From positions 21,948,001 to 22,012,000 of the forward strand of contig CM022672.1 of NCBI GenBank assembly GCA_012295275.1: a stretch of DNA of 64,000 nt. Reading direction: 5' to 3'. Position 1 is the first letter of the stretch, and the number at the start of each line of letters is the position of its first letter. Positions 50,801 through 59,800 of the stretch are shown here, piece after piece. The notes under the pieces were generated by a model. The model saw only the letters and a program-made list of their open reading frames with translations, was not told the origin of the DNA and ran no database searches. A program made the translations under genes and the position numbers. Origin of the DNA: Chrysomallon squamiferum. Taxonomy: Eukaryota > Animalia > Mollusca.

Positions 50801-53800
50801 AATAATAATAATATCCAAAAAAAAAGTATCATAATTATTATTTTTATTCAAAAACATTTTAAATTAAAATAAATCCTTTTTGAACAGCCTTCCTGTGTTT
50901 ACTTACAGAATATTAATTATTATATTAATAAGGATTTATTTAAATAGTATTTTACAGAAATGGCTTCATAGAATAATACATGATGTGTAAAATTCATCAA
51001 ATCATAATAATAATAATAATAATAATAATAATAATAATAATAATAATAATAATAATATTTGATATTTAGTAAGACTAGCTCATACATATATAAAAAATAA
51101 ATTATATCTGGAATGTGTAAGGTGCATAGAAATTTAGAATTTTATGTTAGTTACAAAAGTGCATTTAAAAACAGTAAAATTAATGTGAAAGTCACAAATT
51201 CAGTAAAAGAAGAAAACAATACCAAAATGTTCTATGAAATATTTGTTCAATGTTAAGGCATGCCTGTTAACAAAATGTTAAAATATTCGGAGACATTTTC
51301 TACGAAATCTGGTTTCATAATTTAATAATTATTGTTTAGTTGAATTTTATATGCCTTTCTGAATCAGTATCTAAGATTCTTGTTATTTAAAATTGTTGGA
51401 ATGTTTGTGAAAATTGTCATGATTTTTCTATCAGTAATTTTTTTAAATTTTGATTTACTAATTTTTTATAAAATTAGTGCATACTATATTCTAGAAATTT
51501 AAAAATATATATAATGAAAATGGATTAAAAAGTAAAGGAAGATACTATATTTTTAAAAAAGCAAAATAAATATTGGTTTCAAAAATAGATAAAATAAATA
51601 TAAAATAAATTATAAATATTTCAGAGGTGAAAAAATAAAACGAAACTGTCTGGCTTTAAAACTGACTTTAAATCTACTTGAAATTATTTCTTTTCTGTTA
51701 AATGATTATAACATTTTCATATCACTACTCATACACAAACAATTAATTCATATATAAAGATATGTGTTGGTTCTAATCTAGATGTGTATGCAGGGATTAC
51801 ATATAATATAGATACAATATCATATCATGATAATACATGTACATATATCAGTCTTCATGCATAATACAAATAAGTAATGAATTAATATATAAAAGTGACA
51901 TACAGATTTTGCTTAAAAATTCAAATGTGCATGGTTGCAAGCTAGGTTTCGCAAACCAGGGATTTAAACTCTATTTATTTTAAACCCGAATACGTATTCA
52001 TACATAAATTTTTTTATTTTTTCTCCCTTAATAAGCTGTTAAATAATTCAGGAAATGGGAATAATTTATAATACTGTTTGCTAGGAAATAGAGCAAATAT
52101 TTGTTATCAATAAATTTTATGTCTTTACCATGGAAGTCTAAACTTTGTTTCTTAACAAATAAGAAAGGAAATAAAATGTGTAGAAAGTGCTCATGCTGGA
52201 CTAGTCAAACTTCCAAAGGTTATTAGATTAAAAACAAAGAAATGAAAAAATAAATTAATGAATAAAAAAAGGTTTCTGTAAAAGTATTAATGGATAAGAA
52301 AAGATTAAAAAGGTTATAAAGAAATATGTAAAAAAAATAAATAAATAAGAAAGACAAAAATAATAATAATAATAATATTAATAATAATTCTTAGAAAATG
52401 GTGAAATATCTAAAACAGGAGTGCAAATCATCCAAAGTATTAAATAGTTGAAACAATATCCGACCAACTGGCTTGCTTGGAAACCTATTATTACCTTAAA
52501 GGACTGAAAGAAAGTCCACAGAAGTAGTCGAATGGTTTTTCCCTGACGCAGCAGTTTCACAAGTCGGGCTGCACGGAACAGCCGAAAGAATCCAAAACTG
52601 AACCGACGTCCCTGTAATTTAAAAATTTAGGTATTTTTTAATATATGACATGGATTGCATACCTTGAACGACTGGAAGAAAGTCCACAATAGCAGCCGGA
52701 TAGTATAGCCCTGTCGTAGGAGCTTAACGATACGCAGAGCTCGGAACAGTCGGAAGAAGCCCCAGCTTAGAATCCCTACCTGGAAATGGGAATACAATTA
52801 TTGGTGAAATCAGAAAACAGCGTTATTGAAATACTTACCTCGTAAAGCATGAATTGCAAACAATGAAATGGAGTTCAAGAACCCATCTCTGAAAAAATCC
52901 ATCTTCGGTCGACAGTTAGGTGTACACATTTTCATTTTACTGTGACGTGATTGGCATTATTACAGTATAAGATAAATATAATATCACTAAAGTATGACTG
53001 TGTACCAGATATATATGTAAGTTATTATTTTATAATTTCTGTTCTGTTCCTCATTAAAAAAAACCCCCAGAAAATTCAGAATAATAAGATGAATTATTTT
53101 AATCAGACAACACACAGAAACAATCTCTCACAAATATTCTGTCTATACACAGAAACTAAGATATTCTTCAACATTAATATTTTAAAATCAAATAATAACA
53201 ATATACATGACTGAAAATAATACAATGAATAAATGAATGCATGACTGATGAATGGTACATAAAATATTCTTTTGATGTTAACAGTTATTAGATATTTATC
53301 TTGTTATTTTGTAATAATGTAGAGAAAAGTACACCCAGTGCCATATCAGTTACACAGTACTATCAGTTAACCTTTTCAATGCATAATTAAAAATAACTGC
53401 CAACAAATTCAACAAGATGGCTGCACATAGTGGACTCATACAATGTTTGGGAGACTCTGGGAGTGGGTGTCTGTTTCTTGCAGCACAACAAAGAATTGTG
53501 TTTTTTTTTTAAGGCTGTGGGGTAAATGCACTTTCCACAGTTAATGATAATAAATTTTTGACTGGATATATCAGCTTATTGCAAAGAAAGAGTTTAATAA
53601 CAAAAGCACTTTCAAAGTGTCCTATGTACAAGAAAACTTATATAGTAATCTTTGGTGTACCAGTTATGTACTCTGGTTAGAAGTAAAAATAACTGAAAGG
53701 GTACACTAAGGAGGACTGATCGTATAATTTTATAATAATGTAAAGAAGGTATCAACTGCCATATCAGTTGTAGGCTATTAACAATTATTAACAAAAGAAC

Positions 53801-56800: not shown

Positions 56801-59800
56801 TTTCACTTTAGATGTTTTTGTTTCTCTTGTGAAGAATTGTGTGAATTTAAAGCAAACCTTCCATTCCAATTATTCGTAGGCCAATGTATGTAAAATATAA
56901 CTGTTTGATTTGATGAGAGATGTATATACATAAAGCAATACTAACACATTGTCATGACAACACCACTTAAAGTCAGAGGTCACTCATGCAAGATTATTCA
57001 GGATTCAAGTAGTAGTAATAGTAACAGCAATATTAGTAGTAGTAGTTTTATAATAATAATAATAATAATAATAAAATAATAAATAAATTTTCAAGATTCA
57101 ATAAATTTAAAAAGTTTATTGGTAGGACAAAATTTAAAAAAATAATATTTGTAAAATAAAATAAAATAAAATAAATGTGTTTTATTAAAATGAATGAATA
57201 AATAAAAAAAAAAAAAAAAAAAAATAAACAAATAAATAAATAAATAAATAAGTATAAATAAAACATAATTTGTATAAATGTTTATCAGTGGGGTTTTTTT
57301 TTTCTGTCAGAATTTTATCTTTGCTTTTTACAAATATTTATTTATGGGTTTTAATACTGATACCTATTTTTCATCACATTATTTTAAATGAATGAACTAT
57401 TCAGGCCAATAAAAGATCACAATTTTTATACTTATTTTTGTTATGATAAAAATGTACATCAGTAATCTAATTTTTAGAATGGGAAAAATACAAAAAAGTA
57501 TTTTCAGCATTTCAGGACTGTATATCAGTATTTTAATTTGTTTTCAATTTTTCTTGTTTTCTATTTTCTATTTTTTTTTTTTTTTTTTCTCCTTCTTCTT
57601 CACATTGTTCTTTTTTTTTAATATTTATTTTATTTTTTTTTAAATTATGTCTTTTTTAATGTTAGTTTTATTTTGATATATTAAAAAATTTTGTTATGTA
57701 TTATTTGTTTCTGGTTATTTTATTAAAGAAAATTTTAAAATATGATAAAACCGATAACTAACTTTAAAAATGTCATATTTAAAAACTTGCATGGAGTGAA
57801 CATCTGCATATATAAATATATATACAACAGTAAAGCTGCATTCTGATTGGTCACTTCAAAGACATTCACACGAAGGAACAGCTAATTGGATACTGTATGT
57901 GAAAACAAAACAGAACCAGTCATTCTGATTGGTCACTCCATAAAATACATACACAAAGAAGAAACTGGTTGATGTTTTGTGAGCACAACACAGGACTACA
58001 ATTTTCATTGGTCACTTCAAAAGACATTTACAAAAGAAGGAACATTCTATTGGATGGTTTTATTTTTTTGGTGAGCACAACAGAGGACTACACTCCGACT
58101 GGTTTAAGAGTTTGCTTCAAACCTTTACTCCAAAAGCACATAGCTTTAGTAGGAACTCTATTGTGTATGAAGCTGTAAAGACTTGGTTTATTATTAAAAG
58201 AACATCTGATAGCATCTGGCCACTATTATTTTTAGAATCACCAGGGGTAAACTGAAGTCAAGCAGGCAAAAAAGAGAAATAAGAAAGAAAGAAAAAAAAA
58301 TAGGTTAAATATATGTTAATATATAAATATATAAACTAGTATCCATAGAAACAAACAAAAAAAAAAAAAATAATAATGATAATGATAATAATAATAATTG
58401 TAGTAATTAAGAGAAACGAACAAACAACAAAATAAATTTAAAAATAATAATTTTAGTGAGTTAGTCCTCAGCCAGTGCTGAAATGAAATCAAGATAATGT
58501 GGCAAAAATGAAAAACCCAAAGCAATCTGTATTCTCGTTGGACACCATGTGACCAGAGGAAAGTTCAAAGTTCAACTTATTTATAATATTTAATAAATTG
58601 ATATAAAAATCAGTATATATATTTCTTTTCTTTTCTCTCCCCCATAATTTCAATTCATGTTTATGATAAAATCCTTTTTTCAGTTGGTTTTTTTTGACAG
58701 AATGATTTTTGATTTTACCCAAAAACTTATTCTGTATCATGTTTTGTAGATATTATTTAAGTTTTTACAGTTAAACCTTCTAATGATCACAGATGCTAAA
58801 GGAAACTGGTTTTCCCCTACTAACACATGCTCTGTAATAACATTCTGAATCACTATTATATGATTCTCTTTGTATTAGTACCATAAATTTTGATTCCATT
58901 ATAAAAAAAAAAAAAAAAAAAAATAATAAAAATAAATAAATTTATAAATAAAATGTTTTTATAAGTAATTTGTTTTTAAGAATCAGATTTAATTTTAAAA
59001 AAAAAAAAAAAGAAAAGAAAATGTGAATGAATACAAGAACATCTGTATGGGAAGGAAAAACCAAATTTTCTGTAAGGAAATGTAAATTTGTGAGTGAAAA
59101 ATACATGTATTATTCACAAACCATCCACCATTATTGACATTTTGAAATACTCTTCTCCTGTAACAAACATTTGCACACTATCAAATGACGATTTTCATTT
59201 TAGATTTTTATTTCTTGCAGTCTGAAGCAATAAATACCATTGCTGCTGTAATAACTAGTACAGTTTACATTTGTTTTTAACACAAAATATACATTTAAGG
59301 CATCAGTGTCCATATACATCAAACACTTCTTGATACTGATATCATTTTTACATAATACCACCATATACCTTTTACACTTCAGTTTCTGCATCTTACAAAT
59401 TCTTAATATTATATTTTTGCTCTCCCATTTTAATCTACACCAGTCTGCAAAACAATTTGTTAACAAGGTTAAGCACATATCCCAAAATGTCTTGTCGTCA
59501 GTAATAGGTAACAAATGAAGCAACCAAAACAAGCTGCAAGTTTCTCAGTAAATCTATTCTAAAACATGAAGGTGATAGGCAGGCTTGTTTTGTCTTACCC
59601 TAGGACCAAACCCAATCAGCTTGAGCATACACTCAATCGTGAAGCAACAGGTAAATGCTATATTGAGTCTTACGCTAACTTCAACATAGACACCATCTTG
59701 GCCGTGATACTGGTAGAAAAACAGAATGTTAAAACGCACAGACAAAAAGAAATCAAAAAAAAAAAAAAAAAAAAGTGTTTTTTTGTGAGGTTTTTTCTTT

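Follow-up and report, generated by a model that had tools for sequence, protein, structure and literature searches.

Can a single Cav2 channel gene of a snail build more than one version of its fourth voltage sensor? The question is raised by a stretch of 64,000 nucleotides (nt) from the mollusc Chrysomallon squamiferum (GCA_012295275.1, contig CM022672.1, positions 21,948,001 to 22,012,000), called here the window, whose minus strand carries the 3' portion of a gene for a Cav2 alpha-1 subunit, running from the first segment of domain IV (IVS1) to the DDWC C-terminus. Our analysis agrees with a previous sequence-only reading that alternative sensors of domain IV are probably made from a single gene. 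Two pairs of exons, S2a/S2b and S4A/S4B, are intact and in frame. We consider it probable that each pair is an independent switch between two exons, so that as many as four channels could arise, and we predict S4A to give a minor isoform with shifted gating. The S2 pair by itself is already known; the S4 duplication appears to be the new part and a coupling of the two choices a testable lead. Positions are those of the window.

Two S4 exons under selection

The S4 region of domain IV contains the following features:
52833..52841, minus strand: orphan consensus donor GAG/GTAAGT, 59 nt above the S4A acceptor
52663..52779, minus strand: S4A exon, 117 nt, 39 residues, with S3-S4 loop VGILSW, Ala15Leu and Leu17Ile, and the ancestral Tyr25
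52612..52662, minus strand: S4A-S4B intron, 51 nt, with an in-frame stop inside and candidate branch points at most 44 nt from the donor
52495..52611, minus strand: S4B exon, 117 nt, 39 residues, with S3-S4 loop GRRFSF, a canonical S4 and Tyr25Lys; spliced S3-S4B-S5 in RNA run X3

The two S4 exons lie in tandem, have equal length and phase, and code for the same segment with 31 of 39 residues identical. A comparison codon by codon gives, out of 39, 9 identical, 22 with only silent differences and 8 with a changed residue. Over codons 7 to 39 the proportion of synonymous differences (pS) was 0.86 and that of nonsynonymous differences (pN) was 0.069, and in 5000 simulations of neutral decay the conservation of 30 of the 33 residues was never reached, also when the divergence was set to half of that observed. 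Judged by this codon pattern, both S4A and S4B are under strong purifying selection. The five basic gating residues are retained in both, and the differences are located in the outer loop (two Arg in S4B, zero in S4A), at residues 15 and 17, changed in S4A, and at residue 25, changed in S4B. With a splice-site matrix made from 13 exons of the gene, the S4A acceptor (9.6) and donor (5.7) scored within the span of the real sites. An unspliced contig of RNA run X1 spans 52454-52836 with 0 differences to the genome, so that the tandem pair is real DNA and not an assembly error.

Of 463 proteins examined, 376 gave 380 IVS4 matches. Ala15 and Leu17 were present in 380/380 and Tyr25 in 368, while Lys25 appeared in 11, all of them from Gigantopelta. 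IVS4 is thus nearly invariant in the Cav2 proteins examined, and the two selected versions found here each break a different invariant site. Neither was IVS4 variation within one gene found among the cluster members listed (125 of 389 and 90 of 142) with a readable domain IV (117/125 and 83/90). Since S4B shares Lys25 with Gigantopelta while S4A keeps Tyr, parsimony would place the duplication before the split of the two lineages, each copy having left the ancestral sequence at different sites, and the pair predicts an unannotated S4A in Gigantopelta.

How the S4 choice would be made

The 51-nt intron between the two S4 exons is the shortest of the gene's 18, the next one having 435 nt. Candidate branch-point adenines are predicted at 25, 36 and 44 nt from the S4A donor. 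In human data, mutually exclusive exons are subject to a steric limit when the distance from donor to branch point is below 50 nt (PMC5740500), and here the predicted branch points fall under about that distance in an intron that measures 51 nt altogether. The two exons would therefore exclude each other sterically, because the intron is too short for its donor and branch point both to be engaged at once, and S4A and S4B would not be joinable. Such a physical block is needed because a join of A to B stays an open reading frame and escapes decay; a retained intron introduces a stop.

S4B is the likely default form, and the strong orphan donor may crowd the S4A acceptor. No other AG/GTAAGT occurs in sense orientation in the 45 kb of the gene. 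We found no strong in-frame acceptor for this donor in our search, and a 50-nt exon ending there would bring a stop into either S4 path. It is possibly a decoy or the donor of a poison exon. One end of the unspliced X1 contig, at 52836, is no more than 2 nt from this site, possibly by chance. The sequence upstream of it was also considered as a decayed copy of S2, S3 or S4, and this was rejected since at least 52 of 300 shuffles scored equally in all 10 comparisons.

Because all the gating charges are kept, a swap of S4 exons would act through the outer S3-S4 loop, through S4 packing (Ala to Leu and Leu to Ile in A) and through the S4-S5 linker, where B has Lys in place of Tyr. In human CaV2.2 the activation of the domain IV sensor lies close to pore opening (PMC11389781). 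The duplicated S4A is likely a swappable gating variant, and with this pair the snail provides a natural experiment on the contribution of uncharged S4 residues and of the S4-S5 linker to the tuning of a presynaptic channel.

RNA evidence and the possibility of a silent S4A

Four RNA runs were compared over 52400-55300 at a depth of 4-8, a region that takes in the S3 and S4 exons. A 373-nt contig of run X3 (depth 4.5) reads S2a-S3-S4B-S5, with S2b skipped and S3 joined directly to S4B. It is the spliced contig of one run in four, and contigs lose rare forms. Runs X2 and X5 gave no contig over the S4 exons and hence no evidence either way, and a join of S4A to S4B was not seen in the RNA contigs.

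Several observations weigh against a working S4A. No S4A splice junction was found in 4/4 runs (one of them with a spliced contig), and the 11/11 full-length isoforms of Gigantopelta are only of S2a and S4B types. The two changes of S4A, Ala15Leu and Leu17Ile, were present in 0/380 IVS4 matches, so that no relative with an S4A-like exon appeared there, and metagenome scans gave no exact match to the pattern and no confirmed locus. An S4A ortholog was likewise absent among the best 120 of 1466 proteins of 73-2000 residues, among 30/30 matches of 22-72 residues, and among the best 120 of 7984 proteins of 1058-3369 residues reached with a Littorina query. To this has to be added that the gating effect of the swap is our inference, that the independence of the two switches is assumed, that the 50-nt limit comes from human data and may differ in this snail, and that in Aplysia a swap of the S2 exons 33a and 33b left postsynaptic potential (PSP) size and synaptic depression unchanged (PMC10657410).

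The missing junctions and the Gigantopelta isoforms would also be expected if S4A had been used formerly and were now silent or nearly so, with the gene making only S4B channels, and the perfect donor just upstream, where a 50-nt exon would add a stop, fits with that. Yet synonymous divergence is saturated while the frame, the splice sites and all the charges of S4A are intact; any silencing would have to be recent. S4A showed no difference in the independent run X1, and the RNA depth is 4-8. We hold a silent S4A to be unlikely, and the two either-or switches stay the preferred explanation.

The S2 pair is the mollusc 33a/33b pair

The second pair is formed by these two exons:
59599..59709, minus strand: S2a exon (Aplysia 33a type), 111 nt, 37 residues, Phe at the S2 aromatic site; joined to S3 in RNA run X3
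58123..58251, minus strand: S2b exon (Aplysia 33b type), 129 nt, 43 residues, with a longer S1-S2 loop, Tyr at the S2 aromatic site and a weak donor

As in mollusc 33a/33b, the S1-S2 loop and S2 are coded by exons in tandem, one of a type and one of b type, placed between the exons of IVS1 and IVS3. In a tree of 30 columns S2b grouped with the gastropod b-type exons (support 100/99) and S2a with that of Gigantopelta (97/84). A mutually exclusive IVS2 exon pair is listed for Aplysia, oyster and Octopus (PMC5818475), and in Aplysia, where the exons are named 33a and 33b, sensory neurons use them differently (PMC10657410). By position, type and phylogeny, S2a/S2b is this already published pair. 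Alternatives at IVS2 are present also in Cav2 isoforms of ant, bee and copepod, so the site varies beyond molluscs. The sequence-only reading had offered the whole as a candidate for an undescribed system; that does not hold for the S2 pair, nor for S4 pairs as such, one being known in domain I in Drosophila (PMC11828482). For IVS4 of Cav2 we found no report of an exon pair in a literature search that had most subscription journals outside it, and the S4A/S4B duplication appears to be undescribed so far.

The Asn, Glu and Lys of S2 are common to S2a and S2b. Three residues before the conserved Glu there is Phe in S2a and Tyr in S2b, at a site that we take to be the charge-transfer aromatic. 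Tyr is found here also in the b-type exons of Patella, Haliotis, Pomacea and Biomphalaria, not in those of Bulinus or bivalves. The charge-transfer site of S2 carries Phe and less often Tyr (PMC13095418), and if 33a and 33b channels differ in gating, the replacement in S2b would be a simple candidate cause.

In the course of these comparisons we observed that a Cav2 model of Elysia has three S2-type segments in series, which suggests a three-exon S2 cluster in its gene. Biomphalaria has Cav2 paralogs, two of them 61% identical, and Nucella has two Cav2 models on different contigs. The view that an invertebrate obtains its variety from one Cav2 gene is thus not general in snails, Biomphalaria being the case to the contrary.

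No support for a third module

The sequence-only reading had placed three alternative modules in the voltage-sensor domain (VSD) of domain IV, the third being a microexon in the IVS3-S4 linker, with up to eight versions and S2 and S4 choices matched by countercharge. There are reasons to look for such an exon. Optional IVS3-S4 inserts of 10-16 residues occur in oyster, clam and bee isoforms, and the vertebrate exon e31a lies at the same site (PMC10657410). In-frame candidates do exist in the S3-S4A intron, e.g., 54353-54339. However, when in-frame candidates of at most 60 nt were scored with the matrix mentioned above, 3 of 58 passed the weakest real-site scores, i.e., 1.5 per kb, compared with 0.6-2.6 per kb in 7 other introns of the gene, and the best one scored 10.4 versus 11.4-17.9 for the four real alternative exons. 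The direct S3-S4B join in the RNA points the same way, as do the 87/87 gastropod isoforms with a readable domain IV, all free of an insert, and the exon table of Aplysia (PMC10657410 supplement), which has no linker microexon. On these grounds the microexon is not supported, and the ceiling is four versions and not eight.

Nor do the charges give a reason for matched choices. The five S4 basic residues and the S2 Asn, Glu and Lys are shared by the alternatives, so that no charge mismatch forces a given S2 to go with a given S4. A three-module sensor with countercharge matching seems to us very improbable. What stands of it are the two exon pairs, which we prefer to see as independent switches.

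A possible coupling at the RNA level

Two intronic elements near S2b raise a different kind of link between the two choices:
58457..58480, minus strand: site U, intronic, above S2b; predicted pairing with element D at -27.0 kcal/mol, a weak lead
58075..58102, minus strand: element D, intronic, 21-48 nt below the S2b donor; complementary to S4A at 52692-52719, candidate docking site

D could be a docking site shared by U and by the S4A exon, the latter 5.3 kb away, such that only some of the S2/S4 combinations would be built. Pairing of U with D would loop S2b out, so that S2a is used and S4 is free, and pairing of D with S4A would mask S4A and leave S2b available. The combinations a-A, a-B and b-B would then be allowed and b-A disfavoured, with which the a-B transcript observed is compatible. 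The predicted duplex of D and S4A (52719-52692) has 24 pairs (20 Watson-Crick and 4 G-U) and -32.5 kcal/mol, while the same stretch of S4B reaches -17.2. It ranks 1/612 among exon-by-flank pairs (next -27.4) and 1/104 among tiles (next -28.5). Its energy was reached by 1/1127 and 0/1224 shuffles and by 5/1135 synonymous recodings, with fitted p of 0.0008-0.011, and the U-D energy by 1/523 and 2/540 shuffles.

Against this, the D-S4A duplex is the outcome of a screen that took in 20 of 25 planned region pairs, which leaves a corrected p of about 0.02-0.3. For 18/20 region pairs in this screen, one or more of 40 shuffles attained the same energy; of the two pairs that no shuffle matched, the second was S4A with the S2b exon (-25.9). 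Between the arms of D and S4A lie 5.3 kb that include the constitutive S3 exon, and opening both arms costs about 20-24 kcal/mol. The U-D pairing was noticed after the fact and is not robust: it ranks 2/16, behind a constitutive exon, the fold of its region is not more stable than that of shuffled sequence (z +0.8), and the stem, with a probability of 0.8 as long as the window does not exceed 651 nt, falls to 0 at 851 nt and above. Part of D, moreover, lies in a local repeat. No orthologous DNA was found for covariation of D, and in a search that gave 3465 inverted repeats, the 25 longest all had low-complexity arms. We regard the coupling as unlikely, and two independent switches as the better account. 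If true, the RNA link would be a rare cis mechanism that coordinates two exon clusters, matching parts of one protein domain.

The repeat just below S2b, at 57840-58092, is an imperfect one of ~80 nt with several CCAAT motifs, and may be a transposon remnant.

The gene and its surroundings

The exons around the two pairs are the following:
61923..62087, minus strand: exon of the III-IV linker and IVS1, single copy
54747..54830, minus strand: IVS3 exon, 84 nt, single copy
48077..48142, minus strand: IVS5 exon, single copy

Several lines agree on the identity of the gene. IVS4 with its flanks is nearest to Cav2 and not to Cav1 or Cav3, the top three solved-structure matches of S4A are CaV2.2, 2.1 and 2.3, and the translation of the final exon terminates in EDDWC, a C-terminal end of Cav2 type. 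The single-copy exons (373 residues) are 96% identical to those of Gigantopelta aegis, a peltospirid gastropod, with the runner-up at 84%. By these affinities the gene is a gastropod Cav2. The S2a, S2b, S3, S4A and S4B exons are all in phase 0 and all bounded by AG and GT.

S1, S3 and S5 have one copy each, in agreement with the sequence-only reading, which had extended this to the pore exons. Of these, the IVS5-P turret exon has a second copy at 45494-45580 (minus strand), 83/90 nt identical, with an acceptor present and the donor missing. Lying between the exons of IVS6 and of the EF-hand, it breaks the exon order and is likely a recent pseudo-exon.

Downstream of the channel, exons of another gene are found on the same strand at 443-5736 (minus strand). 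Their translations resemble a beta-hexosaminidase.

Comparison with known systems

The closest counterpart of the S2 pair is Aplysia 33a/33b, at the same site and with the same short a and long-loop b types. In the Aplysia exon table, however, S3 and S4 are coded by single exons, 34 and 35, whereas Chrysomallon has a second S4. For the S4 pair the nearest case is IS4A/IS4B of Drosophila cacophony, mutually exclusive S4 exons of domain I whose swap sets activation voltage and localisation (PMC11828482). Like the pair described here, they are S4 exons of equal length in a single invertebrate Cav2, but they have 99 bp, differ at 13/33 residues and include one extra charge, while the snail exons belong to domain IV, have 117 bp, differ at 8/39 residues and keep the gating charges unchanged; a functional effect is shown in the fly and predicted for the snail. 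The snail duplication is likely independent of that of cacophony, and this would be the second invertebrate Cav2 with an S4 exon duplication, after domain I of Drosophila.

The S4 pair resembles the sterically enforced exclusive exons of 57 human clusters (PMC5740500) in its short intron, its equal phases and its in-frame double inclusion, and differs in that the branch point is a predicted one and the limit is taken from human and not mollusc data. Element D is reminiscent of docking-site and selector pairings (PMC6071210; SCN exons 5a/5b, PMC12772994), in that an intron sequence close to duplicated exons is predicted to have two partners; unlike in those systems, one partner is exonic and lies in another exon cluster 5.3 kb away. 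Finally, the IVS3-S4 loop varies here as it does with the optional exons of vertebrates (CaV2 e31a; CaV1.1 exon 29, PMC6161609), but in the snail the varying part is the 5' end of the S4 exon itself, no separate cassette having been found.

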